From: Candidatus Micrarchaeota archaeon
GTDB taxonomy: Archaea > Micrarchaeota > Micrarchaeia > Anstonellales > Bilamarchaeaceae
DNA length: 43,830 nucleotides
NCBI GenBank assembly: GCA_018304385.1
Contig: JAGVWJ010000002.1
Span: forward strand, 1 to 43,830
Direction of reading: 5' to 3'
Shown here: in pieces, positions 10,387 to 43,830 of the stretch
Numbering within the stretch: the stretch's first letter is position 1
Layout: every line of letters begins with the position of its first letter
Program-made: the position numbers and the translations under genes
Notes under the pieces: model-generated
The model's input: only the letters and a program-made list of their open reading frames with translations
Databases searched by the model: none
Told to the model about the DNA's origin: nothing

Positions 10387-10394
10387 TCAAAACG

Positions 10395-10402: not shown

Positions 10403-10424
10403 AGAAAAAAACAGATTTTATTTA

Positions 10425-11998: not shown

Positions 11999-12065
11999 GC
12001 CAATTCGCAATCATCCAATTTCTCCAACAATACTGTTTTTAAGCCTTTCCTTTCAAAATCATATT

Positions 12066-12500: not shown

Positions 12501-12616
12501 TCATGATCATAATAATATGCTGTGCATGGATGGCGCCGGGAGATATAATCCGTGAACGTTGCGTCAACAATGCACAGTAAACTACTCTAATTTTGCGAAA
12601 CCAGGAGTAATAGTAG

Positions 12617-12862: not shown

Positions 12863-12878
12863 GCGATTAGTGAGAATC

Positions 12879-13214: not shown

Positions 13215-13227
13215 ATTGGTGATTCAA

Positions 13228-14511: not shown

Positions 14512-14536
14512 CTATTAGCTTGTGGCAGGTGGCTTT
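14509..14536. repeat. Degenerate heptamer tract (4 units)
   Basis: tagctat tagcttg tggcagg tggcttt. Confidence 0.6.
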
Positions 14537-14671
14537 ACCAGTAGAAACATAAATTACATATAGGTTGTTGTAAAAGACTTTAAGGACGTGGTGGGCGAAT
14601 TCGTAGGCGCCAAAGTTTATGATGCAAATTATGAATGCTTAATCGGGAAGATGATAAATTGGACACAATAG
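14522..14671 (+). pseudogene. Relic of a C-terminal TRAM domain, MiaB/MtaB-like methylthiotransferase type
   Basis: Translates VAGGFTSRNINYI*VVVKDFKDVVGEFVGAKVYDANYECLIGKMINWTQ*, matching the R..NY..VVV....GEFV.(V)KI..A....LIG pattern; internal TAG at 14561; no upstream gene body. Confidence 0.55.
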
Positions 14672-15594: not shown

Positions 15595-17423
15595 AATTCT
15601 TTGATGTATTTATTAATTATATTAGATTTACCTTGAAGCAGGGATCTACATCATTTCTCGTTATGGTATATCCCATTTTTCTTATCCTTATTATAGGAAC
15701 TGGCTTATCTATAACCAATCCAAATAAAATTAATGTCGCAGTTCTTGGATCAGATGAGATATTTAACATACTGGCGAGAGACAACTCCATAAATATCATT
15801 AAAGCAGATAATGTTGATAATCTTGAATGGCTAGTAAGAAGCAAAAAAGCAATCATGGGCATAGCCATAGAAAAAGAGGGTGATAGAAAAGTAATAAATG
15901 TTTTTATGGATTCTACGAAAAAGGCTGTCTTAAGCAACCTGCTTCTGCTTATAGATAAGGCAGTCAATGAAGAAAAGATTAAATCTGCTAACGACTTAAG
16001 TTCAATACAAAAAAAATTAGCACCAAAGCTAATAGAGATAAAGAATAAATATCAACAAATGGACACTGTTATAACAGAGATTACGGAAATACAAGAAAAA
16101 GCTGCAAGTATAGGATCTGAGCTAGACCAAAGCAAGACTGAATTATCTAATTATAATGAAGAGTTGCTTTCATATAAGTCAGGTTTGGGTAGCATAGATG
16201 ATTATAATCAAAAATTATCTGATTACGAATTACGCTTATCAGATATATTGAATGACGTATCAAACGCAGAAGCAGAGAGAAACAATCTAGTACTAAAAAT
16301 TAATGACCGCATCTACAAAATAAGTGGATACATCACAAAAACTAACACAGCCTTGAGCTATGTAAGAAATGCAAAATTATATACAACTGTGCCAATTGTT
16401 GTATCTAATCTTAACAAGATTGAAAATGAGATAACTAGTGTTAAAAGTGATCTTATTGAGGCACAAAACGATCTAATAGATATAAACAATGACCTCTCTA
16501 GAATAGATTTCTATCCGATTAAAAACGATATCTCAAACACAAAAAACGAGATAAGTACTACAAACTATCAATTAAGATCATTCAAAACAGAGGCTAATAC
16601 AAAAATAGATTCTATGCTATTAAAAGTAGCACAACTTGACAATAAGATATCTATATCGATAAATGAGCTAAAAGAATTTGAAGAAAAACTAAGTTTTACC
16701 AAAGCAGAAACATTCAGGGCAAAGGACCTTGTTAGTGAAATAATAAGACCACTAGATGATTTCATTGGTAAAAAGCCTGAAGAACTTTTGCCCCCTGAAA
16801 TAAATTCGTTCAGTGTTTTTAAAGATGAGAAAACAATTAATATGTTCTTCCCATCAATTATAGGAATTGATATGCTGTTAGCAAGTCTTCTATTACCTAT
16901 GATAATGAAAGTAAGAATGAAAGAACAAGGTGTGGAATTAAGGATGCTCAGAAGCAAAGCAAGTTCTATTTCTATTATACTTGGGGAATTTTTAGCAAAC
17001 TATGTGATGGGTCTTTTCCAATTGTTTGTCATTATTTTATTTGGAGTTGTACTATTTGAAGTTAGATTTGCTAGTTTTCTTGGCTTTTTGGGTGTTTTCT
17101 TTACAATACCGCTTGTTTTTGTCTCTCTTGGTTTAATGTTATCCCAAATTATAAACAGAAGTAGCACTGCTTTTCTTCTTTCTCTTTTAATAAGCATTCC
17201 GATGATATTTGTAAGTGGAACAATCATACCTATAGAATTTCTCAATCCACTTGTAGCGTTTTTTGGCTCGCTCACACCACTATATATATCAATAAATTTC
17301 TCAGAAAAATTAATCTTTAGAAATACCGGATTACTACAGGCGCTAGTTGATTATGGATATATCATATTTTTTACTTTGATCAATCTGACTATTGCAACAA
17401 TTATTTATAGATTAAAAAAATAG
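15591..17423 (+). CDS. ABC-2 permease with a long extracellular coiled-coil (YhgE/Pip-like architecture)
   Basis: N-terminal TM helix, ~300-aa heptad-rich region, C-terminal ABC-2 TM bundle (FVSGTIIP.EFL..., TPL). Confidence 0.85.
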   Translation: MKFFDVFINYIRFTLKQGSTSFLVMVYPIFLILIIGTGLSITNPNKINVAVLGSDEIFNILARDNSINIIKADNVDNLEWLVRSKKAIMGIAIEKEGDRKVINVFMDSTKKAVLSNLLLLIDKAVNEEKIKSANDLSSIQKKLAPKLIEIKNKYQQMDTVITEITEIQEKAASIGSELDQSKTELSNYNEELLSYKSGLGSIDDYNQKLSDYELRLSDILNDVSNAEAERNNLVLKINDRIYKISGYITKTNTALSYVRNAKLYTTVPIVVSNLNKIENEITSVKSDLIEAQNDLIDINNDLSRIDFYPIKNDISNTKNEISTTNYQLRSFKTEANTKIDSMLLKVAQLDNKISISINELKEFEEKLSFTKAETFRAKDLVSEIIRPLDDFIGKKPEELLPPEINSFSVFKDEKTINMFFPSIIGIDMLLASLLLPMIMKVRMKEQGVELRMLRSKASSISIILGEFLANYVMGLFQLFVIILFGVVLFEVRFASFLGFLGVFFTIPLVFVSLGLMLSQIINRSSTAFLLSLLISIPMIFVSGTIIPIEFLNPLVAFFGSLTPLYISINFSEKLIFRNTGLLQALVDYGYIIFFTLINLTIATIIYRLKK

Positions 17424-17909
17424 TTATTGATAAACATACACATCAAAAGTAGCAAGCTCTTCGGTATTAGTTAATCCATTTAATATAGTAACAATACGGC
17501 GGACCTTTGCAATTTGATCTGCATCTACAGCTGTAATATCGCTGCCTATGGCAGGCGCATTATTTACGAACACGCTTACATTAAATGGTGTTGAAAATTT
17601 ATCTTTTAACTGGGTTTGTGTGAGCGTTTTTGCGCAATCAAACTTGGTTTTATTTATCCTTCTGTCTTGCCAACCCATAGAGAGACCTAACTGCTTATGG
17701 GCAGCACTATTACATGCAGCGCCCTCGGGATAACCAGGCGTTAACATAATATCACTTATGCGAAGCGCCTCTTTTGCAAAATCATTTGTTTGTGAATTTA
17801 ACGCAGTTCTGGTGCTATGCCAGTAAGAAAGCAAAGTAAAAAGCGCAAGTATAAACATCACACTGGCGACAATTGCATCAAAGCTGAAGTACTGGCCTTT
17901 TAATTTCAT
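17424..17909 (-). CDS. Type IV pilin-like protein (class III signal peptide)
   Basis: MKLKG|QYFSFDAIVASVMFILALFTLL. Confidence 0.75.
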   Translation of the reverse strand: MKLKGQYFSFDAIVASVMFILALFTLLSYWHSTRTALNSQTNDFAKEALRISDIMLTPGYPEGAACNSAAHKQLGLSMGWQDRRINKTKFDCAKTLTQTQLKDKFSTPFNVSVFVNNAPAIGSDITAVDADQIAKVRRIVTILNGLTNTEELATFDVYVYQ

Positions 17910-17911
17910 AT

Positions 17912-18385
17912 TTACACCGGTTGATTCACGAGCAACGTAGTTCCATTATTATAGAACGATATCACATTTTTGCAATTACTGCTTATTATTTTTTTACTTG
18001 GGCTTACACAACCTACAAAGTTATAATTATAAATGGGGATAGGATAGAAATTTGTTATATTTCCATAGGTTCCTTTCCATGTAAAGTACAAACCACCATT
18101 CGTAGTATCAAACAAAACCTCATAAGGTTTTGAAATGAGTGTTTTCTTAAATGTCATATTAAATCTGAAACCTTCACCGCTGCGCACTGAGAGTACAACT
18201 GCATCAGCGAAGCTATCTCCAACCTCTCTACTAAGAATAGACTCACGAAAACTTATTTCATTAGCCTGTAACGAAGAAACTATAGATAATGTAGCAATGA
18301 CAACAAGTAGAAAAACACCTGCGTATAGGAAGAATTCACTAGCTACCTGCCCATTGCTCATTGCTGATTGCCGACTGCTATCCAT
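17912..18385 (-). CDS. Type IV pilin-like protein (class III signal peptide)
   Basis: ...SNG|QVASEFFLYAGVFLLVVIATL, with E at +5. Confidence 0.75.
   Translation of the reverse strand: MDSSRQSAMSNGQVASEFFLYAGVFLLVVIATLSIVSSLQANEISFRESILSREVGDSFADAVVLSVRSGEGFRFNMTFKKTLISKPYEVLFDTTNGGLYFTWKGTYGNITNFYPIPIYNYNFVGCVSPSKKIISSNCKNVISFYNNGTTLLVNQPV
18340..18381. repeat. Degenerate heptamer tract (6 units) inside a pilin signal peptide
   Basis: tagctac ctgccca ttgctca ttgctga ttgccga ctgctat. Confidence 0.7.
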
Positions 18386-18809
18386 ATACTTCTACCTCAA
18401 CATCACCATTAGGCTTTGATTTTGTTCTTAATGTTATTGAAAATAAACCAGCCCGTTTATTCAGCGAACTAGGATTAATTATTGTCGCATTTGCAAATAT
18501 AGGAGAGGCTGCTTCATAAACGCCGCTAGATGTTTTAAGCCTTATTACAACCTCTTTGTCTTTTATACTTAAATTTTGCATGTTTGTAGGAAACGCAATA
18601 GTAATTGTTTTTTTCGATCCTGGGCCCTGAACAAATAACTCGTTAATATTGTCTGCAATCGTCTTAGATGCTGCATCTGCTTGCGCGAGCGTAGATTTTT
18701 CATACCCAAACTGAGAAACAGATAGCAGTAATAAAAGTACTGGGATTGTGAATGCGAAAACTACACCCACTGTTATTAATAGTTCTAATGAAACCTGTGC
18801 TTTCATCAT
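18378..18809 (-). CDS. Type IV pilin-like protein (class III signal peptide)
   Basis: MMKA|QVSLELLITVGVVFAFTIPVLL, E at +5; GAGGTG RBS before ATG 18809. Confidence 0.85.
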   Translation of the reverse strand: MMKAQVSLELLITVGVVFAFTIPVLLLLLSVSQFGYEKSTLAQADAASKTIADNINELFVQGPGSKKTITIAFPTNMQNLSIKDKEVVIRLKTSSGVYEAASPIFANATIINPSSLNKRAGLFSITLRTKSKPNGDVEVEVYG

Positions 18810-20386
18810 TCGCACCTCGCCTTGGTATCTACACAAGAAATATCCTTTCCATTCAAGAAATCGGATTTTGCATTTGATCCTAGCCTGAAATGCCCAAGCA
18901 AAGAATCATCAGAACACATATTGAAATCCCTACATCCAGGCATTCCTCTTATTTTATCACCAGAAATAGATGGATTTGAAAATAGCTCTCGATCTGCCCT
19001 ACTTACTGTATCTGGATAAGATGGAACAACTGGTGCACCAGCATCAATACCTGCTCCGCCAATATATTTGCCAACTAAAAATGTTTCTATTCCATAGGTG
19101 CTACTATTGCGCGCAAATGCATCGTCAAATAATCTTTGGAAATAGGATGGCGAGCGATAGTTTCGAACATAATAGCTACACATTGTGAAATCTCTAAGTT
19201 TTTCAATATCGTAGATGGCTGCTTGTGATTGCGAAGCAAGTTTTCTTTCTTTATTTGCGTTTACATCCTCATAACTATATTTCATAACAAATAACATACA
19301 TTTTCCATCTGGGCAATCACCACCAGAGTTTATATTGAAATTAGGTCGAACAATGAATGGTTTATTTGTTTGAATGTATGCACCACTAAAATCTGGATTA
19401 GGACAATCTAGAGAATTATAAACTAAAGCATTGATTGTATTGAATTGATTATTCTTGCCTGGACAGGCAGAAGCAGAGGCCTCTACTGTATTAGTAACAA
19501 TATATGCGCCAAACTGACCATAATCAACTGTTGCATTACTCAAACCCGCAATTTCTGTATAATTACCAACTAAGATATACCTGCTTCTTTGGTTATCTTG
19601 GATGCTCTGTGCGTTATTTACGTGCACCATCGGCCCATAGAACCAGCCTTGGCCATCACTTGTAGGAACGGAAAGGTCCCGTGGTGTAAAGTTAGAGCTA
19701 TTCTGATAGCCTGAATAAAAGAAGAATTGCTTTTCTATTGGTGTTGCTGAGCCATGTTTCTTATCTTCTCTATTTATTGCAGGATCAACTAAGCCCTCTA
19801 TAGTCATATTGCCACGCAAACTATAGTCCCTGCTTATAGATGCAAGGCCGCTCTTTTCCTCTATAGTAAGGTGAACATCAAATGAATAATTAAGCGAATG
19901 AACAGCTACCTGCTTTATTGAAAAATTATCCAATGAGAATCTGCCTATTTGCATGCCGGTTTTTGATATAGAATTATTTAGACTATCAACCCACCCAGTA
20001 AAGGAATTTTGAACACCAATATCTAACTCTAAATTAGTAACAAAATTGCTAGCATTCGCTTTGCCATAGTACATCAACTCATAGAATGTTTTATTTACAT
20101 AATAAAATTCACCAGCTGACCCACTAATACCATTGGATTTAACTGGGTTATCTGCAGCAAACTCATTTAGTTTAAATAATGCGTCATAAGAAACTATTCT
20201 AGCTAGTTTTTCCAATTTATCTTTTGTAACTTGCGTGGCTACAAGGTCTAGATTAGATGTTCTAAAACGATCTGAAAATCGCCTCTCATTTTCCTCTACT
20301 GCTTTTGTCCATATAGATATAGATAATAATATGTAACTAAGTATCAAGAAAATCGCGACTACAAAGAAAAAACCCTTGGAATTCAT
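18806..20386 (-). CDS. Large pilin-like / adhesin-like surface protein with class III signal peptide
   Basis: MNSKG|FFFVVAIFLILSYILL followed by a ~500-aa Asn/Ser-rich, Cys-containing domain. Confidence 0.7.
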   Translation of the reverse strand: MNSKGFFFVVAIFLILSYILLSISIWTKAVEENERRFSDRFRTSNLDLVATQVTKDKLEKLARIVSYDALFKLNEFAADNPVKSNGISGSAGEFYYVNKTFYELMYYGKANASNFVTNLELDIGVQNSFTGWVDSLNNSISKTGMQIGRFSLDNFSIKQVAVHSLNYSFDVHLTIEEKSGLASISRDYSLRGNMTIEGLVDPAINREDKKHGSATPIEKQFFFYSGYQNSSNFTPRDLSVPTSDGQGWFYGPMVHVNNAQSIQDNQRSRYILVGNYTEIAGLSNATVDYGQFGAYIVTNTVEASASACPGKNNQFNTINALVYNSLDCPNPDFSGAYIQTNKPFIVRPNFNINSGGDCPDGKCMLFVMKYSYEDVNANKERKLASQSQAAIYDIEKLRDFTMCSYYVRNYRSPSYFQRLFDDAFARNSSTYGIETFLVGKYIGGAGIDAGAPVVPSYPDTVSRADRELFSNPSISGDKIRGMPGCRDFNMCSDDSLLGHFRLGSNAKSDFLNGKDISCVDTKARCE

Positions 20387-20395
20387 ATTAATCAT

Positions 20396-20980
20396 CTAGA
20401 TAAACACCGTTAATTTAACCACCTTTATGCTTACGCTCGGAAGAGTATATGGCGATATTGGTACATCGCAGACAACTGCAGCACCACTGCAAGTCATATA
20501 GCTATATGGATTCTCTGGTGGTGTTGGCTGATCTTTATAATCAAAAACAACTGTGTATGAAGAAACAGTAAGTCTTTGATTTTTTGTATTATGCGGATCA
20601 TCTAGGATCGTATTGCCATTTGCTGTGTTGTATAGCTCGGTCCAAGAACCGCCTGTGCTTGTCTCTACTGCATAGCCAAACTGTTGTGGTATGCGCTGGC
20701 CAATAAAAAAATCAATATCCCCTTTTGAGTCATCTGTACGCAGTATAAGAAAATCTAATACACTAATATCAGGAGTACAGTCTGGTTGTGGATAGGTGCA
20801 TTTAGTCTGGGATAGTGCCAAAAGCGTATCTTTTGATAGATAATGCGCCTGCGTAAGCGAATTATAATAAGCAGAAGGAATACTAGAAAAGAATATTAGT
20901 GTGTAAATCGCAACAAGCGCCAGCGTAAATGCTATAAATGCGTCTAAAGAAAAGATAAACCCACGGACAGTATTTTTCAT
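20396..20980 (-). CDS. Type IV pilin-like protein (class III signal peptide)
   Basis: MKNTVRG|FIFSLDAFIAFTLALVAI; start moved from 21055 to 20980; TTTATAAA at 21003-21010 fits a leaderless promoter. Confidence 0.78.
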   Translation of the reverse strand: MKNTVRGFIFSLDAFIAFTLALVAIYTLIFFSSIPSAYYNSLTQAHYLSKDTLLALSQTKCTYPQPDCTPDISVLDFLILRTDDSKGDIDFFIGQRIPQQFGYAVETSTGGSWTELYNTANGNTILDDPHNTKNQRLTVSSYTVVFDYKDQPTPPENPYSYMTCSGAAVVCDVPISPYTLPSVSIKVVKLTVFI

Positions 20981-27023: not shown

Positions 27024-27065
27024 TGGCCTATTGCCAACGGCCAATTGCTAAATGCCAATAGCCAA
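27024..27065. repeat. Degenerate heptamer tract (6 units) filling a convergent intergenic gap
   Basis: tggccta ttgccaa cggccaa ttgctaa atgccaa tagccaa. Confidence 0.85.
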
Positions 27066-27638
27066 CTATTTACTATTCTTTAACAAATCATAAAACTTGC
27101 TTGCATTGAGCCATTCGCAACCTATTTTATCTGCAAATTTAAGCACGCCTTCATCACTGCTAACAAGCGTTGCCTCTAATTCCTTTGCCAAAAGCAATAG
27201 ATCAAAATCCTCCTTGCTATCTACTAAGCCAGTGCGCACTGCATCTCTATACTTATCACGCAAGCGCTTAAGCTTTTCATCATTTTCTGGTCGATTATCT
27301 TGTGCAAATTCTTCTGCTAGGCGCAGGCCTTTGTTTATTCGATGACGAACATCTTCGATAAAATCATTAAGCACTGCTGCTGGCAGATATAATGCATATG
27401 TGTTTGGGGCACGCTTTTTAACATATAGATCAAGCTGGTGCGCTTCTTTTTCTCCAATAAAATTTCTAAGTTCCTTGGATATGCTTGGCGGAATGAAAAA
27501 ATCTCCTCCACTTCGTTTCTTAATCAGTTTAACAAATCCTCTAACTGCTGCACTAGGGTCTTTACCAAAGTTCTCACGTGCGTGTGGATTAACAAATAAA
27601 GAGGTGTCTATTACGAATCTTCTGGGGGGTATTGCCAT
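27066..27638 (-). CDS. RNA-free RNase P (HARP, PIN-like; 'RNA ligase partner' family)
   Basis: FVIDTSLF.NP, F.IPPSI..EL, IED.R.RINKGLRLAE, LR.KYR.A.R.G.VDSKED.D..LLA.EL.A.LVS.DEG. Confidence 0.92.
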   Translation of the reverse strand: MAIPPRRFVIDTSLFVNPHARENFGKDPSAAVRGFVKLIKKRSGGDFFIPPSISKELRNFIGEKEAHQLDLYVKKRAPNTYALYLPAAVLNDFIEDVRHRINKGLRLAEEFAQDNRPENDEKLKRLRDKYRDAVRTGLVDSKEDFDLLLLAKELEATLVSSDEGVLKFADKIGCEWLNASKFYDLLKNSK

Positions 27639-27671
27639 ATTTTAGATTAAAAAGAGAAAACTTAAAAGCAT

Positions 27672-27734
27672 TAGTTATTGGTTATTGGTCACATATCAAA
27701 TACCAATTACTAATTACCAACTACCAAAGACCAA
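27672..27734. repeat. Palindromic heptamer tract (9 units, GT/AC variant)
   Basis: tagttat tggttat tggtcac atatcaa ataccaa ttactaa ttaccaa ctaccaa agaccaa. Confidence 0.85.
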
Positions 27735-27737
27735 GTA

Positions 27738-28838
27738 CTATAAAAACTTAACCAACCCTCTTCCAATCTCTGGTATGTTCCCACCAAACAGGTTAGATGT
27801 GGAAAGCACGAAAGTAAGCACTAATACCATGGCAACCAAAGGTATGAAGCATATGGTAATGGTAATATGCCTAAGTACGCCTGTCAAACTAGAGTCAGTA
27901 GATATATTAAATGGCGAGGTTGGATCAATTCCTAAGAAATCTTTTATCTTGCTTCTATGAAGACTCATCCAGGATTTTATCTCAAACATCTTGCCAGCTG
28001 TTGTAAACCCACAATATTGCATGTCACCTAGATTTGGTAAGGTGCAAACAACATTAGAAGTAAATCCAGGACCTGATTCGTAAGTTACTGCGCCAACATT
28101 CCCGCCAGTATCCATGATTGCTGGTTTTACATAAGGTAATGTCATACTGGTTGCAAGAATGTATGTCATTGGAAATACCAGATACATACCAATTGCAAAT
28201 GCGATTATATATGCGCCTGCACCGCGTGTAGGAGGAAATGCGCGTAGCACTACGCCAACACCAACAAAAAATAACGCATAATGATTAATGAAATTCAGTA
28301 TATGCACTATAACATAATAAGAAAATACGAAAAATTGCAATGCCTGCGTTGCATTATTTATACGCTCTACTAATATTTTAAAACCAAATCCGCTAGCATG
28401 CTCGCTCATAAATATTTCTAGATAAACAGATGCTATTGCCTCAGAAGGTATGCTTATTACATATAGCATATTAATTATTTTTCTGCTACAGGTAATTGCT
28501 GGCTCCATGTACAATTTTGTAATATCAATAAGCGTTGCAGGTTGACCACCTGCAGTAACAAGCGTGCCTGGCAAAGGAATACCATATGATGCGCTAAACA
28601 TTTCGCTTGCAATGCCAACGAGCATATTTTCTCCGCCTTTCACAACGCCAATTATTACTAATACCAAGAAAACAGTAGATGCTGCATAAACAATTTCTAC
28701 TTTAGCAACCTGCTGGAATTGCGGGAATTGGAATACTTTGGAAAACATTAGTAATAGCACTGAAGCAAATACACTAATCAATGCTGCAAGGATTGCAAAT
28801 GATTCCCAACCTACAAACACAGTTTCATGACCAGCCAT
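27738..28838 (-). CDS. Multi-pass membrane protein, paralog 6 of 6 (VirB6/CedA-like by inference)
   Basis: AK.E motif after TM1; G..LRAFPPTRGAGAYIIA...FP; C-terminal GGNIPEI..L. Confidence 0.8.
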   Translation of the reverse strand: MAGHETVFVGWESFAILAALISVFASVLLLMFSKVFQFPQFQQVAKVEIVYAASTVFLVLVIIGVVKGGENMLVGIASEMFSASYGIPLPGTLVTAGGQPATLIDITKLYMEPAITCSRKIINMLYVISIPSEAIASVYLEIFMSEHASGFGFKILVERINNATQALQFFVFSYYVIVHILNFINHYALFFVGVGVVLRAFPPTRGAGAYIIAFAIGMYLVFPMTYILATSMTLPYVKPAIMDTGGNVGAVTYESGPGFTSNVVCTLPNLGDMQYCGFTTAGKMFEIKSWMSLHRSKIKDFLGIDPTSPFNISTDSSLTGVLRHITITICFIPLVAMVLVLTFVLSTSNLFGGNIPEIGRGLVKFL

Positions 28839-28839
28839 C

Positions 28840-29982
28840 TTAGATCATCCTAGTTAACGTAGTAATATCAACTTCTTCTCCTAGTGATTTGCTCATATAT
28901 TTTACAGCTTGTACAAGTACTAAAACATTTAATGCTGGCAACAGATAACCAACAGCAAACGCAATGCCAACAACAGTAAGTGGCACAAAGAATGCTACGG
29001 CAAATAATGTGCCAAAGAAATTTTGGAATATTTCACCAAGTTTTACAAGATTACCAATTGTAAGATTCCATAATATGTCTACAAAACTTTCTACTTGTTT
29101 TTCAGTTGAAAGAGATGGTGCTACTGATGGAGTTGCTGGAGTTCCTGCTGAAGGCGGAGTGCTAGGTGTTGGGTCTGGACAACCTGGAAGATAATCACCA
29201 AATTCAGCGCATGCAACATCTTTAACAGCATCATCCATACCTCTAATTGGACTATCTGGACTTAGGACTATCTGAGCATTTATTATTGTTACAAATGGAA
29301 CGATAAATAAAAACCCAAGGCCAATGGCAATTAATGCACCACCCAAACGACGCGTTGGCGTAAATGATCTTAACACTAAACCAAGCGGGATATAAAATTT
29401 CAAGAACCCAACAACAGCAAATTCAAATACAATGCGCTGTGCAGTATTAATGATATATGCAATTGTTAATGCAGAATTAATATTGTAGATTATCTGCTTT
29501 AAAGGAGCTGCAAAACCAGCAAGCGGCGCAGCAACAATACCAACACCAAGCGGACGCGAATATGGCGTTGCTGATGCGAGATTGTCTGTCCATACGCCAA
29601 ATAAATAATCTGTTTCCATCCAACCAATAATCATATCCCCTACCTCAATGTAATATTGCTGGGTAGCCTTGTATATTTTATCATCAGGATGATGACCATG
29701 CGGAAATATAGAGCCAACTGTTAATGAATTCATCATAGCCACAGCAGATATAATGAAAACAACCAATATTGCACTCATTATTAATTCGAATAATTCTAGC
29801 TTGACAAAACCTATAGTACCTTGGTTTCTAAGTATGACGCCAATCAAATAGATGAATGTTAAAAGCATAAGTGAGGTAATTAGCGCTGCAGCTAATGCTG
29901 CTGTCCAATCTGGGAATAGCGCTGCAAAATCACCGCCGCGATCAATGAATCCCTGAATATCAAATATGTGTGATGTCATCAA
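28840..29982 (-). CDS. Multi-pass membrane protein, paralog 5 of 6
   Basis: VKLELFE; PLGLVLRSFTPTRRLGGALIA; LLPALN...GEEVDI..LTRMI. Confidence 0.8.
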   Translation of the reverse strand: MMTSHIFDIQGFIDRGGDFAALFPDWTAALAAALITSLMLLTFIYLIGVILRNQGTIGFVKLELFELIMSAILVVFIISAVAMMNSLTVGSIFPHGHHPDDKIYKATQQYYIEVGDMIIGWMETDYLFGVWTDNLASATPYSRPLGVGIVAAPLAGFAAPLKQIIYNINSALTIAYIINTAQRIVFEFAVVGFLKFYIPLGLVLRSFTPTRRLGGALIAIGLGFLFIVPFVTIINAQIVLSPDSPIRGMDDAVKDVACAEFGDYLPGCPDPTPSTPPSAGTPATPSVAPSLSTEKQVESFVDILWNLTIGNLVKLGEIFQNFFGTLFAVAFFVPLTVVGIAFAVGYLLPALNVLVLVQAVKYMSKSLGEEVDITTLTRMI

Positions 29983-31241
29983 ATCAACCTGACGAATGCA
30001 AAGAAATTAATATCAACATTAAAGAATCGCGCAGTTTCTCGCGCGCTTGTAAGTGTTATGAAAATATTAATTAGTGGCAATATTAGACTCATAATAACAA
30101 TGAAAAATACTGATGCTTTTATAAGTTCAAAGGCTACGCTAAGTGCACCTGTTAAGAAAAACGGTATGAATACACCTCCCATAAACAATAGAAGCACCCA
30201 AAATATGCCGAAAATGCCAAGCCCACCGTAATCCCTTACAAAATTAACAATTGGCGAGTTTGGATCTACTGCGCCACAATAATCACTAATGCCATTACCA
30301 AAGCTAGAAAGCCCGCCATATACGTTACATCCCATTAGCTTATAGATTTCATAATTAACTATAAACATAAATGGATAGAATAAAGAAAATGAAAATACTA
30401 ATGCGATAAATGCATCTCCTGCACCGCGTATTGGCGGTATTGAACGCATAAGCATTCCTATTGGGATAAATATTGAGAATGTCCATTTTTTTATCATGCA
30501 CATTGTTGTTATATGCACAACCCATTCGCCTATGCCAACGCTTAGGAATTGCATGGAAAATCCAAGAATATCTATCAATGGTTTTAATACTGGGCCAAGA
30601 TTAAAGGAAAACATAGCGCGCCATGTTACGCCAAACCACATTGTTGCAGAGAATAATGTATGTATAACCATATTATAAGATATTAAAAGGAAAAAATTAG
30701 TTGTCATATCTTTAACTAATAATTCAGAAAACACAATTGATGCATCTATATAGGTTGGTGCCTGCATATAAACAACATCAGTAGTACCTGCTGGTATATT
30801 CATTGAATACCATTGAGTAGCAGCGCTCATTACTACTATAATAAAGGTAACCCTAAGAAATGTTATGCCAATTTGGAAAAATTCCTCTTTAGCAATGGCA
30901 ATTATATTAGGAGATTGTAAAAATATACCAAACAAATAAACTAGCGTATAAATCATTACAAGTATAAATAAAACTAGCCCTATAGGTGCCAACCATTCTG
31001 ATTTAGCAAAATCAAGCCAACCACCTGGAGGATCGCACGTGCCTGCACCTATCCATCCAAAAACAGACTGGAATGCAGCATTCACTTTAGTTGTTGAGCT
31101 TCGTATAAACTCGCAGGTACTATCGTGTACTACATTGCCTTCTGCATCTATATTTTCACAATCATGGTTTGTTGCATTGCTGACTGGTACGACTAACAAA
31201 AACGCAAGCATGAAAACGAACAACAACATTTTATATTTCAT
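29979..31241 (-). CDS. Multi-pass membrane protein, paralog 4 of 6
   Basis: AKEEFFQ; PIGMLMRSIPPIRGAGDAFIA...FYP; ILPLIN; start moved from 31289 to MKYK at 31241 because the extension is repeat-derived. Confidence 0.8.
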   Translation of the reverse strand: MKYKMLLFVFMLAFLLVVPVSNATNHDCENIDAEGNVVHDSTCEFIRSSTTKVNAAFQSVFGWIGAGTCDPPGGWLDFAKSEWLAPIGLVLFILVMIYTLVYLFGIFLQSPNIIAIAKEEFFQIGITFLRVTFIIVVMSAATQWYSMNIPAGTTDVVYMQAPTYIDASIVFSELLVKDMTTNFFLLISYNMVIHTLFSATMWFGVTWRAMFSFNLGPVLKPLIDILGFSMQFLSVGIGEWVVHITTMCMIKKWTFSIFIPIGMLMRSIPPIRGAGDAFIALVFSFSLFYPFMFIVNYEIYKLMGCNVYGGLSSFGNGISDYCGAVDPNSPIVNFVRDYGGLGIFGIFWVLLLFMGGVFIPFFLTGALSVAFELIKASVFFIVIMSLILPLINIFITLTSARETARFFNVDINFFAFVRLI

Positions 31242-31264
31242 ATGTATTTCCTGCCTTGGGCCCC

Positions 31265-31316
31265 GAGCAATGAGCAAACGTTGGCTCATGGCTCATTGCG
31301 CACTGCTCATTGCTAT
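31265..31316. repeat. Palindromic heptamer tract (GAGC/GCTC variant)
   Basis: gagcaat gagcaaa ... tggctca tggctca ttgcgca ctgctca ttgctat. Confidence 0.8.
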
Positions 31317-32698
31317 ATTAAATGTGTCAACCCAGCTATTTCTATATCCCCTCCAAGCACCATAGATAAACTTCTTATAGCTGCAATGGATGCTAGTATG
31401 CCAAGTAAACCAAAGAATATTGAAAAGAATGCATATCTGGCAAGCATGTCAAAAATGCCACCATTATCAAATGCACTTCCTGGGAATGGATCATACCATT
31501 TACTTGAACTAATGTTTTGGAACCATTTCATTCCAACATCATAATTATCCTTAAATGCCCTGAGCGCTTGATCACGATCAGTAACTCGATTGCCTGTATT
31601 AAAGTTATACGCGCTATCTTCACCACTTGGACGCAGCAACTCACCATCCTCTAAACTCTTTTTATGATCTCCCCCACCCTCTGATTTAATATAAACATCT
31701 AGTTTTCTATATTCTTCTGCTTCTTTGCCTAAATCCAGTTTCGATCCAAGAATTGTGATATTACCACTCGCATATATGTAGTGGGCTATTTTTGGATCCA
31801 GGTCATCTGCTGTACGTAGCTCATCTTTAATGTGCTTTATTATAATGCCAGGAAATACATAAAACATAGGGAATATAAAAAATAATACAAGTGCTATTGC
31901 CATTAAAAGACCGCCTAATTTTCTGGTAAATACAAATGTTCGCATGATTATGCCTAGTATAAATAAGCCAGGAAACAATGCCTGACTTATAAAGCTGATT
32001 AGTACTTCTTGGAATTTTAATAATGTCATTATCTTTATTGCTGTTTCAAAAATAAATGTCTTCATTAAATTGCCAAGCACCACAAATCCACGCCATGGCG
32101 TAAGTGTAAAGAAACCTGCCTTTTCAAAAACAAATTCAATATTTATTGCAAAATCCGCTAATGTTGAACTAAGGAGCGAACTAAGATAAACATGAAAATT
32201 AAAATCATCCAATTCACCAAATAATGTATTAAGAAAATACATAGCAACCCTTATGTGGCAATATGGGATACCTTCTTTTTTTACTGGGTCCCAATAATAA
32301 GGAGAATTAGGATTATCTGCTAGGAATGTACCAGTCTCTTTACAAAGATCAACAGGCTCGTAGCTATAATCTAAAAATGTCCTTCCAAGCGCAGCACTTC
32401 CAACAAGGTTTCTGCCAACAGGATAGTATACCGAAAATTCTCCATTAGTATCAACTACAAGCGATTTAACAAGACTATTTCCAGTGTTAACTGTAAACAT
32501 AACAAATGCAATTATAACGGCAGAATAAAATATTTCAACAAAACCAGTTTTTGCAGCGCCTTTTATTTTATCATTTTGTATAAATATTCCAAGAAGATAA
32601 ACAACAATGTTAACAAATACTGCTATAAGTATAAGTAATCCCATAATAGGCATCCAATAATTTAACAACGCATCATCAAATATTAAACCCATATTCAT
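31313..32698 (-). CDS. Multi-pass membrane protein, paralog 3 of 6
   Basis: AKTGFVE; LGIIMRTFVFTRKLGGLLMA...IFP; GGDIEIAGLTHLI; start moved from 32722 to 32698 (AGGAG RBS). Confidence 0.8.
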   Translation of the reverse strand: MNMGLIFDDALLNYWMPIMGLLILIAVFVNIVVYLLGIFIQNDKIKGAAKTGFVEIFYSAVIIAFVMFTVNTGNSLVKSLVVDTNGEFSVYYPVGRNLVGSAALGRTFLDYSYEPVDLCKETGTFLADNPNSPYYWDPVKKEGIPYCHIRVAMYFLNTLFGELDDFNFHVYLSSLLSSTLADFAINIEFVFEKAGFFTLTPWRGFVVLGNLMKTFIFETAIKIMTLLKFQEVLISFISQALFPGLFILGIIMRTFVFTRKLGGLLMAIALVLFFIFPMFYVFPGIIIKHIKDELRTADDLDPKIAHYIYASGNITILGSKLDLGKEAEEYRKLDVYIKSEGGGDHKKSLEDGELLRPSGEDSAYNFNTGNRVTDRDQALRAFKDNYDVGMKWFQNISSSKWYDPFPGSAFDNGGIFDMLARYAFFSIFFGLLGILASIAAIRSLSMVLGGDIEIAGLTHLI

Positions 32699-32701
32699 CT
32701 C

Positions 32702-32778
32702 CTGCTTTTGGCTTTTGGCCATTAGCTAGTAGCTACGAGCCAACAGCCAAAGGCTAAGAGCCAATTGCTCATTGCCAA
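32702..32778. repeat. Palindromic heptamer tract (11 units)
   Basis: ctgcttt tggcttt tggccat tagctag tagctac gagccaa cagccaa aggctaa gagccaa ttgctca ttgccaa. Confidence 0.88.
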
Positions 32779-32779
32779 A

Positions 32780-33799
32780 TCATATTTTCATAAGCACGAA
32801 TTTTATAAACGTATTAATGAATGAAAACGTAATAGTTAGCGATAGCGCAGGCAAGAAAAGTGCAGCAAGTGACAGCGTTGCAAGGCTATCTAATATAGGC
32901 TCGAACATTATTGGTGTTAACATGTTAATGCCTAGCTCTGAGAATATTAGTCTAAATAGCTGCCCAAATACAGGAACCTTTCCAATGCCAAAAGGAAACG
33001 AAACTAATGGGCTTCCAATAAAACCAAATATGAAATAATTAGAGCTGCAAAATGTTGATAGCTGATAACCTTGCCGCACGTATCCCTGATAGTTCATTGA
33101 CTCTAAGATCTTTTCATTTATCACATAAGTGAGCGGAAATACTGCCTGAAACCCAATTGCAAACGCAATAAGGAAGATACCAGCATCACGGGTTGGGGGA
33201 AAGAACCTAAGGGCATCACGAGTTGGTGGAAAGAACCTAAGGATAATGCCTGCAGGTAAGAAGAACCTTACCATTGTGACGTCAATAAGTTGAAATATTA
33301 CTAACTGAGCATTAAGGCTGCCAAATGCTGCTGTTAACCCAAAACCAAGCACATTCGTAACGCCAACAAACGTATCCATGCCTGGAAATATTTTATATGT
33401 AAGTGTTAAAACAAATTCGCCTATTCTTCTGGTAAGTGTACTTAGGACAGATACGCATATCTGAACCAAATACACATCGTTTATTCCTTTCAGTGTATCA
33501 CTAAGTGTGGATTTTAAAAAATTAGAGCCAGCCTCAATAGCACTAGTAGCACCTCCGCCTGCCATACCCGCAGCAATTAAATTTGCAGCAGTAAAGAAAC
33601 CAATAGCAAATAGCAGAATGAAGAATGAGGCAAAAAATTCTGAAAGCTCAACATTAAACCAAACCTCTAAGCTTTGTAGTTTAAGAACTTTAGATGCAAG
33701 ATACGTAAGTATAATTAAGCCAAGAATAACACTACTCACAAGCATAATAACGAAAAGATAAATGCTTACTGCATCTTGTGCGCCAGTCATAATCATCAC
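32780..33799 (-). CDS. Multi-pass membrane protein, paralog 2 of 6
   Basis: VELSE; PAGIILRFFPPTRDA(LRFFPPTRDA)GIFLIA...VFP; FLPALS. Confidence 0.8.
   Translation of the reverse strand: MMIMTGAQDAVSIYLFVIMLVSSVILGLIILTYLASKVLKLQSLEVWFNVELSEFFASFFILLFAIGFFTAANLIAAGMAGGGATSAIEAGSNFLKSTLSDTLKGINDVYLVQICVSVLSTLTRRIGEFVLTLTYKIFPGMDTFVGVTNVLGFGLTAAFGSLNAQLVIFQLIDVTMVRFFLPAGIILRFFPPTRDALRFFPPTRDAGIFLIAFAIGFQAVFPLTYVINEKILESMNYQGYVRQGYQLSTFCSSNYFIFGFIGSPLVSFPFGIGKVPVFGQLFRLIFSELGINMLTPIMFEPILDSLATLSLAALFLPALSLTITFSFINTFIKFVLMKI
33183..33242. repeat. 30-bp in-frame tandem duplication
   Basis: gcatcacgggttgggggaaagaacctaagg / gcatcacgagttggtggaaagaacctaagg; both differences are synonymous. Confidence 0.92.
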
Positions 33800-35391
33800 A
33801 CTAATTTCGTCAAGCCCATTATTTCAACCTCGCCACCTATTAACTCAGATATATTTCTATACATTGTAATGGTAATAATAATCTCAATTACTGATGTGAT
33901 AGTAACCAATATGATAAACTGGGATATTGCAACAACCTCTTCTATTATAAACTTATAAAGACCGCCTGAAGAACCTAAAGGTATCCCCTTACCCAGATTC
34001 ATAAGCCAGTCGCCAGAAAATGTCATCATTGTTATCCAGATGTTAACTACAGTACCTACGAAACTTACTATAGCACTTGCAGTGCCAGTTATCACATTCC
34101 AAACGCTGCATAAAAATCTAGGAAGATAATTGCATTTATCAACTTGTGTCCTTTGTATAATGTCTTTATCTTTTTGGAAATGATCTAAGAAATGACTCGA
34201 TTCTTCTTTTGCCTCGTCCTGCATATGCCTAAGCTTGTCTGCTCTTTGCGCATCTGTTAACCCGGGATCATTGTAAAAGCTAATTGCATCCTCATTTGGC
34301 GTAAATAAAAACAGCGCTGGCTTGAATATATCAAAAACAAGATAATTGGAAAACATAATAGATAAAGGATAGATAAAATAAACAACAATGCATATAGCAA
34401 TAAGGCTCGAACCTGTTGCCCTAAACCAAGGAAACGCACGCATAATTAGACCAAATGGCAATAGTATTGTTGGTATTGCATCCCTTGCAAATATTACAAT
34501 AAACTCTTTTGCCCAGATAACTGACATGAGATAGCCAATTGCCTCTACTACCACAGTATGCGCATTAGCTAATAGTATCAAACCATCAAAAGGCATTAAT
34601 GAGAATGAAATAATATTTACTGCTGGAAATGGCGAGCCAATGGGAAAAGAAACTGTTGATAAAAATCCAATGAGTACCTCAAAAAGGTATAAACTAGTAT
34701 AGTGTGTTCTTAGCTTTACAAAAAATATTTCTAGCGAACCATATGCAACGTCCAGATGTGATGTTAAATAGGTATATCCAGCCTGTGTTTGTGTTGTTGT
34801 AGGGATATTCAAACCTGGCGTAGATTGCGCAATTATACCAGTAGATATATCTGTAAACAACTGAGTAATTGTAACCCAGGAAATTAGGATAACTATGCTC
34901 ATAATTAATACGCCAAGCTCTTCTTTTGCTGCTAGCTGCAATGGCGGATGTTGAAGTACCTGACCTGGCAAATAGAATAAAACAACCCATATAACCCCAA
35001 ATAAAAGCGCAACAATTATATGTTTAAAATAAGGTGGTGGAAACTTACCTGTAAGCAGATTTACTATGTTCTGCTCTGTGAATACAACATAAATAATAAT
35101 TGCGATAAATGCTGCGATTGCAAGGTTTTCTGCCCAGATTGTTGCTTTTGCGCGCGTTTCTGCACCAAAAGACTGACCTAGCGTGTATAACACGGCTGCA
35201 GATAGTATAAGAAGCATTATTGATGGACCTAAGAAACTACGAAAAGTATGCATCGTATTGCACATATCTTGTGAGATAGTACCTGGCGCGTATATACCGC
35301 ATTCGGAATATTGGGCAAAACTAGTACCGATTATTAGCAAAAACACTACTAGTATTAATAGCGGTTTTATACCCATAAATATATTGCACAT
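33796..35391 (-). CDS. Multi-pass membrane protein, paralog 1 of 6, with an extra N-terminal VirB2/TrbC-pilin-like hairpin
   Basis: Signal peptide (..SFA|QY), two-helix module (LILSAAVLYTLGQSFGAETRAKATIWAENLAIAAFIAII), AAKEEL, PFGLIMRAFPWFRATGSSLIA...IYP, GGEVEIMGLTKLV. Confidence 0.78.
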   Translation of the reverse strand: MCNIFMGIKPLLILVVFLLIIGTSFAQYSECGIYAPGTISQDMCNTMHTFRSFLGPSIMLLILSAAVLYTLGQSFGAETRAKATIWAENLAIAAFIAIIIYVVFTEQNIVNLLTGKFPPPYFKHIIVALLFGVIWVVLFYLPGQVLQHPPLQLAAKEELGVLIMSIVILISWVTITQLFTDISTGIIAQSTPGLNIPTTTQTQAGYTYLTSHLDVAYGSLEIFFVKLRTHYTSLYLFEVLIGFLSTVSFPIGSPFPAVNIISFSLMPFDGLILLANAHTVVVEAIGYLMSVIWAKEFIVIFARDAIPTILLPFGLIMRAFPWFRATGSSLIAICIVVYFIYPLSIMFSNYLVFDIFKPALFLFTPNEDAISFYNDPGLTDAQRADKLRHMQDEAKEESSHFLDHFQKDKDIIQRTQVDKCNYLPRFLCSVWNVITGTASAIVSFVGTVVNIWITMMTFSGDWLMNLGKGIPLGSSGGLYKFIIEEVVAISQFIILVTITSVIEIIITITMYRNISELIGGEVEIMGLTKLV

Positions 35392-41498: not shown

Positions 41499-43830
41499 CT
41501 ACTTTCTCCCCCCCACGAGCCGCACATGACCATGCTCCTTTTCGTATAAATCTCCACTTCTAAGCAGTTCAGCAATTAATTTTCTAGCGTCCTGTTCGAT
41601 TATTCCGTAATTGGCAGCGTCTTTTATGATTTTTTCTACATCCGCGCTATCCTCTCTAGTTAGATGATCTTTAATAATATCTAACACAGTATCAACCTTC
41701 TGCAGCTTCTCTCGCTCGGTTTTTGATTTTCCTAGAGTAACAACATCAGAATCCAATACCCCGGTCGCCCTGTCGGTCATAACCTGACGCATAACATAAT
41801 TCATAAGACCAATAGCAGTATCGGCATCTTTTTCCTCAACAGTAGCATTTAATCGCATCTTTGCATTTGCTTCAGCTAGGCGCACCAATCCTTCCAGATA
41901 ACGGGGCGTAATCGCAACTGAACCAGTATCTTTGCTGCGGCGCCTTAGATCAATATAAAAGTCTTTGATCTTGTCTATTGCAGGTTGCGTTAACTGCGGT
42001 AAAATACTTCTTCTGGCATAAGCAATATACATACGCAATAAATCTTTATCAATTAGAGGCTGTTCCTGCTCTGTTTTTTTACCCATATGAGCAGCTAGTA
42101 TATGCTGTGCTAATTTAGCATCCTTTTCTTCATCAAGAACATCTACTATTGGAAATAAAAGATCAAAACGCGAATTGTGGCAAAGAATTCCGCCAAGACC
42201 TGCTACAAAATTTTCGTCCCCCGCAACCGAAATATCATAAACGTAATGGGAAGAATCGGCAGGCTCAATTTTCTTAATTCGTGCGACACCAAGGTCCCCT
42301 TCTAAAAATCGTTGTACGAACTCCATGGTTTCTAATGCGCCCTTGGCACCATTACTGGTGGAATAAAACATTTGAAAACCACCTTTTGCAAGTATCTTTC
42401 TCTCGCTCTTTAGTATGCCTCTCTTAAACCATTTATTAACAAAAGTTCTTCCTCCCTCCCTAACAAATCCAAATGTTGCTTCGTACTCTTGAACGGAATG
42501 TGGCGTAGTAAAATAATTGAGGTGTTCAAGCCGATACGGAATTCGTGCTGATAAAAATTCGCTCCACCATCTTTCCGTCACGCTTCTTCGTTTGGATTTT
42601 GTTTCTGGCCGCAACCCTAAAAATGCCTTTGCGTAGTTAGAATCACTAATCATACGAATAGTTTTTGCGAGCTCACCAAGTGGAAGATAGGAATAAAATT
42701 TACGATTTTTAAACCGTGGGAGTTGCGGGGGAAACTAACTTATAATATCCATGTGAAGTAATTGGACGACCGTTCAGTAAAGCTGTACGCTCCTTCTCAT
42801 CTCTGCCTACCGTGCCTATGATACCACATGTAAGAAGGAGATATAAAACGTCAGAAATAAGTTCACGACTAACCGTAACTCCGGCATCTCCGTTGAACCA
42901 CGCATCTAAGAATTGTTTTTTGAGGTCTGTTGTAACATTAAATACAATATCTGGAATCTTTTTCGTGTGTGCACTGTGGCCCACGTTAAGAACGTCGTGA
43001 AGCAGATGATAGATAAGACGATTTCCGACATTTACTTTAGATGCATTTCTATCCGGCAATATACTTACCGTTTGCTTGAAAAGTGTAAAAATAATATTTT
43101 TTACTTCCTCTATAAAGTGGGTTTCTTTTTTATTGAAGCAAAAACTAAGCAAATGAGAACGAGAACTAGAAATAAATAGTGACCCTTCTGCAATATAATA
43201 TCCTAAGAGGCGTAGAAGTTCTTTGGAAACAGGAATAAAGGTTGGTACCCCGCTGGGTGATCCACCCTTGCATTTCAAGGTACAATACCTTAGCTCATCA
43301 TTTTTTAATTGATGCGCAAATTCAAGCGGTAACTTCTTGAAATTAATCCAATGTCTAGGTATCTTGCTAAGGCGCGAAAACACAGACATGGGGACATTGT
43401 GCAAGAATAATCCTCTAGTTATTTTAAGCCTAAGTAATTCATGCGCTAAATTAATTTCCGTAATCTCAATAGTGTTAGACGGCAAGCGTTTTGGAATGAT
43501 AACAAAATCTCCTTCCTTAAGCTGATCTGATGGGACCGTAACTATCTTTGAATCCCTGAAAATAAAAACGCTGTGACCAGGGGTAATTTTTATTTCCCGC
43601 CCAGATTCAAGAGTTAATTTATGCAGGGGTTTTTCGTAGGTGTGTCTAAAAACATAAGTAATCGGCCTCCAGTTTATTTTGAGCGTTTCTTGGTCAAAGG
43701 CAAGCACTTCGACCTTTTCTGCTGGTTTTGGTATTCCGTGTTCATCTTTAGAATAATACAAATCAATAAATTTACCAATCTTAATTGTTTTAATCCGGTC
43801 ATTTTGTTTTATAAGAATTGGTTCGTCGTA
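41499..43830 (-). CDS. mcm: MCM replicative helicase, 3' part (partial), intein-interrupted and frameshifted
   Basis: C-extein 41499-42173: SRFDLLF (Arg finger), LRMYIAYAR, ITPRYLEGLVRLAEA.AK.RL, winged-helix tail. Confidence 0.92.
42174..43830 (-). mobile_element. Intein with LAGLIDADG homing endonuclease, inserted before the MCM SRF motif (N-terminus just outside the window)
   Basis: YDEPILI (post block A), ITPGHSVF (block B), LLGYYIAEGS and FLDAWFNGDAG (LAGLIDADG), VYDISV..ENF (block F), CHN|S junction; +1 frameshift at 42727-42734. Confidence 0.92.

Follow-up and report, generated by a model that had tools for sequence, protein, structure and literature searches.

Six paralogous membrane proteins as the probable core of a chromosomal, type IV secretion system-derived machine in Micrarchaeota

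Introduction

What might six divergent copies of one membrane protein, encoded side by side, do for a Micrarchaeota cell? We addressed this question for a 43,830-nt stretch of DNA from Candidatus Micrarchaeota archaeon (GCA_018304385.1, contig JAGVWJ010000002.1), hereafter called the window; the genome to which it belongs (G000) is 89% complete. Positions 27738-35391 of the window are filled on the minus strand by six open reading frames (ORFs) of 339-531 aa, which we named W1-W6 in transcription order and which sum to 2,521 aa. We conclude, with a probability of about 0.7, that each of the six genes specifies a distinct, non-interchangeable subunit in the membrane core of a machine that is encoded on the chromosome, descends from a type IV secretion system (T4SS) and is a core feature of Micrarchaeota. 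This machine may be the means by which the cells connect to other cells.

To our knowledge, no molecular apparatus for host attachment or exchange has been established for Micrarchaeota, and the matter is an open question for DPANN. Two systems for archaeal DNA import are Ced in Sulfolobales (CedA, CedE, CedA1, CedA2, CedB and CedD) and Ted in Thermoproteales (TedA, TedB and TedC) (PMC9905601; PMC11868833). We assign the Micrarchaeota machine to the T4SS-derived, Ced/Ted type because three components, a VirB6-like fold, membrane proteins resembling the N-terminal domain of VirB4 (VirB4-N) and pilin matches, all point there.

Results

Six paralogs form one operon and share one predicted topology

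The W1/W2 and W4/W5 gene pairs overlap by 4 nt, and the remaining gaps measure 57, 23 and 1 nt; W1-W6 are therefore read as one operon. Pairwise identity among the six proteins is 18-23%, with BLASTP E-values between paralogs down to 1e-12 and an invariant core, G..R.....R..G....A.........P. A hidden Markov model (HMM) built from W1-W6 recovered seven further members elsewhere in the genome (1e-14 to 1e-35), giving 13 in total. The W genes are real, because each has orthologs in other Micrarchaeota at 36-93% identity.

A first-pass annotation, made from the letters of the window, had described six co-oriented paralogs, each with an N-terminal transmembrane (TM) helix, a (K)xE motif and a variable, Cys-containing external loop, and in most copies a C-terminal tail motif. 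These features were borne out. The (K)xE motif is present after TM1, and E63 of W5 is nearly invariant across 19 sequences. The tail, G(G/E)x(I/V)xI..L..(L/M)I, was found in W1, W3, W5 and W6, is degenerate in W4 and is absent from W2.

We tallied charges and Cys residues over 19 family members. In the two short loops, which contain no Cys, K+R amount to 14 and 24 per 100 aa, respectively, a strongly basic composition; the N-terminal extensions and the two long variable regions are acidic. Cys residues are confined almost entirely to these acidic regions and to the neighbouring stretch that the alignment assigns to TM5, into which part of the large inserts is drawn; none occur in the C-terminal tail. 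Signal peptides stand at the start of W1 and W4. The distribution of charges fits a protein that has its N-terminus outside the cell, five TM helices and a cytoplasmic C-terminus; the Arg-rich loop and the tail would be cytoplasmic and the variable domains would face outward. Because basic, Cys-free short loops and acidic long regions give this topology, the variable Cys-containing regions are predicted to be external, as first proposed.

The number, order and orthology of the six genes are fixed

Complete arrays were found in 13 genomes, representing eight sampled families plus two public assemblies, and 18 out of 18 such arrays have six genes; for five of the 13 genomes, the gene counts rest on the coordinates of matches and the lengths of open frames instead of on ORF calls. 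Genome G030 has another array, split across contig ends, which stands outside the 18. All of W1-W6 have one-to-one orthologs in Ca. Bilamarchaeum dharawalense (36-44% identity, E ~1e-69 to 1e-117), with order and synteny unchanged, and the same holds for GCA_053535495, the closest relative of the window genome. The synteny of the array with housekeeping genes is conserved.

In a tree of 60 sequences, the position labels required seven changes, against a minimum of six and a mean of 41 after shuffling. Position 5 and a clade of single-copy paralogs were each monophyletic (Shimodaira-Hasegawa-like approximate likelihood-ratio test [SH-aLRT] support, 96). At positions 1, 4, 5 and 6, the two arrays found in the window genome's family grouped together, as direct sisters at positions 1, 4 and 6. 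Because of this position-wise grouping, we regard the second array as a duplicate of the whole operon. Paralog number is thus exactly six rather than random, and the idea of six subtypes conserved across Micrarchaeota, which the first-pass annotation had left to phylogeny, held up. The fixed number, the shared order and the tracking of position by phylogeny point to a fixed six-subunit assembly.

The family was present in 135 out of 151 genomes sampled across the phylum, a tally that includes the unpublished genome G029, on which nothing else here depends. A library of 1.84 billion proteins yielded 3,306 cluster representatives at E <= 0.001; all of those given a source name are called hypothetical or uncharacterised. 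Homologs of the W proteins bear the names Candidatus Micrarchaeota or Bilamarchaeaceae: the 52 homologs of W5 are all from Micrarchaeota or unnamed, and the 228 homologs of W6 at E <= 1e-10 are all unnamed or listed as a Micrarchaeota 'hypothetical protein'. Some representatives reach 1,100-1,600 aa through inserts (for example, P0104, P0123, P0162, P0175 and P0193), and the large inserts suggest an adhesin-like elaboration of single positions.

The predicted fold of W5 resembles VirB6 and TrbL

W5 was chosen for folding. The AlphaFold2 model, built with 50 orthologs, had a predicted local distance difference test (pLDDT) score of 82.7 and a predicted template-modelling score (pTM) of 0.75. 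Among 48,161 PDB chains, its top match was the VirB6 protein TrwI (7o3v_F; Z 9.3, root-mean-square deviation 6.5 Å, 241 out of 261 residues), and DotA, from the Dot/Icm protochannel of Legionella, came second (Z 8.2). A search of the ESM Atlas ranked TrbL_2 of the CD1112 type and TrbL directly behind the model's own Micrarchaeota ('Microcaldota') clusters, with template-modelling scores of 0.42/0.57 and 0.46/0.41, respectively; the scores by target are 0.57 for TrbL_2 and 0.41 for TrbL. The structural likeness to VirB6 that had been predicted was thus recovered in both searches. The model appears polytopic with long protruding helices, as in VirB6, which we take as moderate support for a VirB6 fold.

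A VirB4-like motor and VirB2-like pilins accompany the arrays of relatives

The equivalent loci were retrieved from five related genomes that are closed or almost so (G016, G100, G038, G108 and G087). In G016, G100 and G108, the operon consists, in order, of a DUF7847-like membrane gene, the six paralogs, two genes for ~277-aa proteins and a gene for a 505-aa ATPase; G016 additionally has a pilin-like gene upstream of the operon. G038 (family f10) has the same order, with a 520-aa gene at the ATPase position that fell outside the ATPase cluster in our comparison, and in G103 the ATPase gene follows 1.7 kb after the array. The two ~277-aa proteins are paralogous, each with two N-terminal TM helices (2-TM proteins). 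A single-copy minimal module, comprising a ~125-aa gene, one paralog, one 2-TM gene and an ATPase gene, is also present in G016, G100, G038 and G108; G087, from the window genome's family, has it without the upstream small gene.

The ATPases carry DUF87, AAA_10 and TraG P-loop domains, and their sequence matches in the PDB are HerA-clade proteins, DptH and VirB4 (4ag5, E 2.7e-7). For the model of the 2-TM protein (pLDDT 76.9), the ten best Foldseek matches in the PDB were all TrwK/VirB4 (probability 0.96-1.00), and in a VIA search the only match spanning the soluble domain was TrwK (Z 9.1, 166 residues). Because both searches lead to TrwK/VirB4, the 2-TM protein looks like a VirB3-like anchor joined to a VirB4 N-domain and separated from the ATPase domain.

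In an alignment of eight pilin-like proteins, five out of eight match Pfam T4SS_pilin (best E 1.1e-5) and four out of eight match TrbC/VirB2; the small gene of G016 reached 21.9 bits, for a cut-off of 26.6. The small genes upstream of the single-copy paralog are homologous to aa 5-117 of W1 and to free genes on contigs C1 and C36 of the window genome. This segment of W1, which aligns with these small genes and is 41% identical to the free 125-aa protein on C1, consists of the signal peptide, a hydrophobic helix, a short AE(T)RAK loop and a second hydrophobic helix; the module itself had no direct match in Pfam. Its location differs between genomes: it is part of the position-2 protein in Ca. 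Bilamarchaeum and of W1 (position 1) here. A pilin HMM also gave weak matches to the first hairpins of two core paralogs (G100 position 4, E 1e-5; G087b position 3, E 3e-4). Both a VirB4-like motor and a VirB2-type pilin, with two hydrophobic helices and a short basic loop, were found, the parts that a minimal archaeal T4SS-like system comprises besides its VirB6-like protein.

The first-pass annotation had placed the ATPase outside the window and proposed that the genome be searched for it and for free pilins, and both were located. VirB4/HerA-type ATPase genes lie on contigs C33 and C2, and in one-array relatives such a gene directly follows the six paralogs; the C33 ATPase is 46% identical to the array-linked ATPase of G016. 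Free pilin genes lie on C1 and C36, in addition to the pilin-like module fused to W1. The motor is contiguous with the array in the one-array genomes G016, G100, G108 and G103 (families f9, f10 and f11) and is encoded apart from it in the four two-array families that we checked (f1, f2, f6 and f17). One motor serving two alternative six-subunit heads would fit this arrangement.

Two other sets of genes were considered as parts and rejected. The genome's three T2SSE ATPases, of the type IV pilus/archaellum kind, sit in pilus-type clusters of their own with no link to the family. Two soluble PRTase-like genes (306 and 279 aa) follow the array in Ca. Bilamarchaeum, and their orthologs are found elsewhere (C20) in the window genome.

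Features of the individual genes and loci

The features of the operon and its putative partners are collected in Table 1, in which B1-B6 denote the position orthologs in Ca. Bilamarchaeum dharawalense.

Table 1. Coordinates of the six genes, of features within or beside them and of related loci on other contigs of the window genome
Feature	Position	Strand	Remarks
W1, position 1, VirB6-like, 531 aa	33796-35391	minus	Signal peptide, N-terminal VirB2-like pilin module and five-TM core; 40% identity to B1, E 5e-95; also recovered by the family HMM
Pilin module (VirB2/CedA1-like) fused to W1, ~aa 5-117	35041-35376	minus	Homology to free pilin-like genes
W2, position 2, 339 aa	32780-33799	minus	Shortest copy; without C-terminal tail motif; 41% identity to B2, E 9e-69
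30-bp in-frame tandem duplication inside W2, 2 copies, 93% match	33183-33242	minus	Tandem Repeats Finder
W3, position 3, 469 aa	31313-32722	minus	Largest external regions of the array; 36% identity to B3, E 4e-97
W4, position 4, 436 aa	29979-31289	minus	Signal peptide; N-terminal external extension of ~100 aa containing Cys; 44% identity to B4, E 3e-117
W5, position 5, 380 aa (379 aa from ATG 29979)	28840-29982	minus	Copy chosen for folding
W6, position 6, 366 aa	27738-28838	minus	Last gene of the operon; 40% identity to B6, E 1e-87
TATA-box-like element TATAAAAA	35398-35405	minus	Read from sequence; in the 27-nt gap between W1 and LeuRS, ~26 nt upstream of ATG 35376
Second six-gene array	C19 (L011) 6225-13824		Family HMM
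Motor module	C33		Two 2-TM/VirB4-N-like genes, 520-aa ATPase gene, coiled-coil/winged helix-turn-helix gene
Minimal single-copy module	C2		Paralog, 2-TM gene, ATPase gene
Free pilin-like genes	C1, C36		Pilin homology

The operon is bordered by a divergent leucyl-tRNA synthetase (LeuRS) gene on the W1 side and by a PIN_5 gene downstream, and the rest of the window is archaeal housekeeping DNA, with genes for CDP-archaeol synthase, an intein-bearing MCM, an RNA ligase and Trm5. The TATA-like element is a candidate promoter of a leaderless operon transcript. Because the second ATG of W1 (Met6, 35376) follows it at a distance of ~26 nt, that codon is probably the start of a leaderless W1; W5 and W2 probably start at ATG 29979 and Met4, respectively. 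Arrays of 7-nt and 14-nt units (for example, ATTGGTT and CAATTAC) occur at the junctions of operon genes (27025-27066, 27670-27740, 31284-31314 and 32704-32719), and the short repeat arrays 3' of the W6 stop codon are able to pair as a hairpin.

W2 is 89% identical to the gene of GCA_053535495. The duplication inside it doubles LRFFPPTRDA, the most conserved cytoplasmic loop of the family, and is private to the window genome, showing as a 10-aa gap in the GCA_053535495 ortholog; either a recent variant or an artefact of assembly could account for it. In the tree, W4 falls among the position-4 genes from its own taxonomic order (SH-aLRT 95). In the family members of 1,100-1,600 aa, the second external region holds a very large insert, on either side of which a stretch of the core is matched.

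On C19, the position-3 protein of the second array has 650 aa, including a Cys-rich external insert of ~300 aa. The array is followed at 13825-16316 by a 204-aa gene and then by a gene that continues past the contig end (>631 aa), both of them without a family assignment; in G087, the genes behind the equivalent array encode 1131 and 984 aa. On C2 (L012), two minus-strand genes at 10470-14478, encoding a 643-aa protein without a family and a 691-aa AAA_5/MoxR-like protein, split the 2-TM/VirB4-N gene from the ATPase gene; the minimal module is uninterrupted in G087, from the same family. The 125-aa, two-helix VirB2-like pilin of C1 (L013, 6337-6714) is encoded by the first gene of a tandem pair close to a contig end; the second gene (6757-7104) encodes a 115-aa protein with one long hydrophobic helix and C-terminal cysteines. 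A 251-aa DUF7847/GPDPase_memb-like multi-pass protein is encoded on the minus strand of C57 (L039, 5895-6650); its orthologs directly precede the arrays in families f9 and f10, and relatives of the DUF7847-like protein in the Atlas also occur in Iainarchaeota.

Elsewhere in the window, five co-oriented, Pfam-blank genes (529, 219, 152, 157 and 161 aa; 17424-20980) form a candidate class III signal-peptide (type IV pilin-like) operon. The intein-bearing MCM helicase gene (41499-43830) is represented by two ORFs, one of 384 aa and the other of 350 or 373 aa, with a possible frameshift at 42700-42740.

Discussion

A proposed mechanism

In the machine that we propose, each subunit would have five TM helices, a pilin-like first helical hairpin and two variable, Cys-containing external domains, and would expose to the cytoplasm an R-x5-R-x2-G loop and a GG(D/E)(I/V)xI tail. 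The six subunits would occupy fixed positions, most simply at 1:1:1:1:1:1, and together make up a platform or channel resembling VirB6. A VirB4-like motor split into three genes, namely those on C33 for the two 2-TM proteins with the VirB4-N fold and for the VirB4/HerA-type ATPase, would dock onto the conserved parts that the subunits expose to the cytoplasm. As in bacterial T4SS and in Ced/Ted, motor and platform would extract VirB2-like pilins (those of C1 and C36 and the one fused to W1) from the membrane and assemble them into a pilus or conduit. The surface turned to the exterior or to a partner cell would consist of the variable external domains, and the second array, on C19, would probably share the motor as an alternative head.

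As for cargo, contact and exchange between the cell and a host or partner seems most likely, with DNA possibly among the material exchanged, as it is in Ced/Ted; Ced-like DNA import would rank second, and a role as a pilus only is possible. A more specific version is tentative, and we lean against it: the six subunits, arranged in gene order, would form a hetero-hexameric VirB6-type ring matching a six-fold motor, as opposed to the 5:6 mismatch of bacteria, and in two-array lineages the motor would alternate between heads that contact the host, the whole serving as a conduit for host material.

Evidence that weighs against a T4SS-derived machine

Several results count against our interpretation, first among them the lack of a sequence signal. 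Pfam and NCBIfam searches of the six W proteins at E <= 1 returned no family, save two chance-level CrgA rows for W1, and the family HMM run against all PDB sequences came back empty at E <= 10. With hhalign, the family profile reached a probability of 0.1-0.2% both against TrwI of R388 alone and against a 32-sequence TrwI profile, the latter narrow, with members >= 50% identical to TrwI and covering the proteobacterial TrwI branch only; a profile of W5 orthologs against R388 TrwI likewise gave 0.1-0.2% and no signal. Foldseek placed TrwI at ranks 7-8 (E 0.9) for the W5 model and found nothing in the PDB at E <= 0.001, and a Z of 9.3 is within the range that all-helical models attain by arrangement alone. 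Pfam at E <= 0.01 also gave nothing for the six proteins of the second array and the single-copy paralog of C2, only a sub-threshold Ninjurin row.

The remaining points concern the machine itself. In the window genome and its family, neither six-gene array adjoins an ATPase or pilin gene: the paralogs are encoded together with a VirB4-type ATPase and a VirB2-type pilin in one-array relatives, and here the motor and pilin would be linked to the arrays through orthology with other families, by way of genes on other contigs. The genome, at its 89% completeness, contained no match to the VirB4 N-domain family PF03135 and none to the VirD4-type coupling protein family PF02534, relaxases not having been searched for. 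Mutual contact of the six proteins is a prediction only; a predicted W5-W6 complex, based on our own alignments, scored 0.02 against a mark of 0.32, which speaks neither for nor against binding.

Because of the Foldseek E-value, a Z score within reach of helical look-alikes and the blank profile comparisons, we regard the fold evidence taken alone as suggestive, not conclusive. The VirB6/CedA-like assignment of the first-pass annotation is thus partly supported: it holds at the level of fold, with TrwI and DotA as top matches, and of gene context in relatives, and it does not hold at the level of sequence.

Alternative explanations

The strongest competitor is a Ced/Ted-type importer or exchanger of DNA between Micrarchaeota cells, in which the six paralogs are the channel and nothing is host-specific; we judge it unlikely. 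The closest archaeal VirB2/VirB6/VirB4-like systems, Ced and Ted, do import DNA (PMC9905601; PMC11868833). Ced also has a second VirB6-like paralog, the five-TM CedE, and shares the function of the VirB4 N-domain between CedB and CedD (PMC11868833). The minimal module of C2 and of relatives (pilin, one paralog, VirB4-N-like protein and ATPase) is exactly the Ced/Ted parts list. DNA import, however, leaves unexplained the six fixed subunits, where Ced and Ted by their published description use one or two VirB6-like proteins, and the large variable Cys-rich domains, with inserts of >1000 aa. No DNA-processing genes were linked in the loci that we inspected, and genomes of 0.7-1.5 Mb carry the system as part of their constitutive core.

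A lineage-specific membrane protein with no relation to T4SS, such as a transporter or a protein of envelope or surface-layer biogenesis, is improbable. The likeness to VirB6 would then be superficial and the ATPase would belong to some other HerA-type machine, in keeping with the absence of sequence similarity to known families, with Z and Foldseek values that are not decisive for helical proteins and with an ATPase sequence that fits the HerA clade at least as well as VirB4. Three independent components nevertheless agree, namely the VirB6-like fold, the VirB4-N fold (Foldseek probability up to 1.00) and the T4SS_pilin/TrbC matches, and the two PDB chains that match the W5 model best both come from a T4SS stalk or protochannel.

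Tandem, diverged VirB6-like genes are known from obligate symbionts with reduced, host-dependent genomes, including rvhB6a-e of Rickettsiales, virB6-1 to virB6-4 of Anaplasmataceae and trwI of Bartonella, some with large extra domains. Those arrays are bacterial, recognisable by Pfam and lineage-dependent in copy number, whereas in Micrarchaeota the six, their order and their orthology are fixed phylum-wide. That the paralogs are interchangeable versions, each forming its own homo-oligomer for host-range or surface variation, is likewise improbable: such amplification, the several Bartonella TrwI copies listed in our sequence search, the pilin amplification in Bartonella and Anaplasma cited in PMC12102498, the external position of the variable parts and the complete second array would all suit it, but variation families grow and shrink, and here every complete array has six genes, each position is an ancient orthologous lineage with order kept across families, the ~20% identical paralogs show no signs of recent duplication or conversion within the array, and the genes are translationally coupled in one operon.

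Relation to known systems

A membrane core of six non-interchangeable subunits thus remains our preferred explanation, and as such it resembles known machines in some respects and departs from them in others. Like Ced and Ted, it would be a chromosomal, domesticated T4SS derivative with a VirB2-like pilin, a polytopic VirB6-like component and a VirB4/HerA-type ATPase, without outer-membrane parts; the resemblance of the VirB6-like protein's N-terminus to the system's own pilin, described for the archaeal systems (PMC9905601), may be a further shared trait. By contrast with Ced and Ted, the Micrarchaeota motor is split into two 2-TM proteins with the VirB4-N fold and a separate ATPase, and the system has large variable Cys-rich external domains and is near-universal in a DPANN phylum.

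The likeness to VirB6/TrbL (TrwI of R388; PDB 7o3v and 8rtd; PF04610 and PF19478) lies in a polytopic architecture with long helices protruding from the membrane; TrwI is the best structural match of W5, and the paralogs of related genomes are encoded with a VirB4-like ATPase and a VirB2-like pilin. The differences are that no sequence or profile similarity joins the two, that TrwI is a homo-pentamer under a VirB5 pentamer whereas six different proteins are encoded here, and that TrwI of R388 is plasmid-borne whereas the Micrarchaeota system is chromosomal and vertically inherited. Unlike bacterial T4SS, the Micrarchaeota loci showed no equivalents of VirB5, VirB8, VirB9 or VirB10.

A further parallel comes from Patescibacteria (also termed CPR, candidate phyla radiation), in which VirB6, PrgI/VirB3 and TrsD of a chromosomal T4SS were reported to be essential for epibiotic growth in one cultivated strain (PMC12102498). 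There too, conjugation-derived T4SS parts (VirB4, VirB3-like, VirB6 and VirB2-like pilins) are retained in the reduced chromosomes of ultrasmall epibionts (PMC12102498). Those parts, however, are of a bacterial monoderm type that standard HMMs find, with a single VirB6 and neither a six-paralog array nor a three-gene motor. Our full-text literature searches found no published description of a six-paralog T4SS-like system in Micrarchaeota or DPANN.

Implications

For Micrarchaeota, the analysis provides a near phylum-wide, vertically inherited candidate apparatus whose parts can be named, namely VirB2-like pilins, the six VirB6-like subunits and a VirB4-like motor encoded by three genes. For annotation, the analysis concerns a family with >3,300 cluster representatives, those with a source name being labelled hypothetical or uncharacterised. 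The reading would extend domesticated, conjugation-derived machines from the Ced and Ted systems of Crenarchaeota to DPANN, in parallel with the T4SS of Patescibacteria. If it is true, the six genes would encode the first fixed six-protein hetero-oligomeric VirB6 platform, which would bear on how the symmetry of such a platform relates to a hexameric motor.

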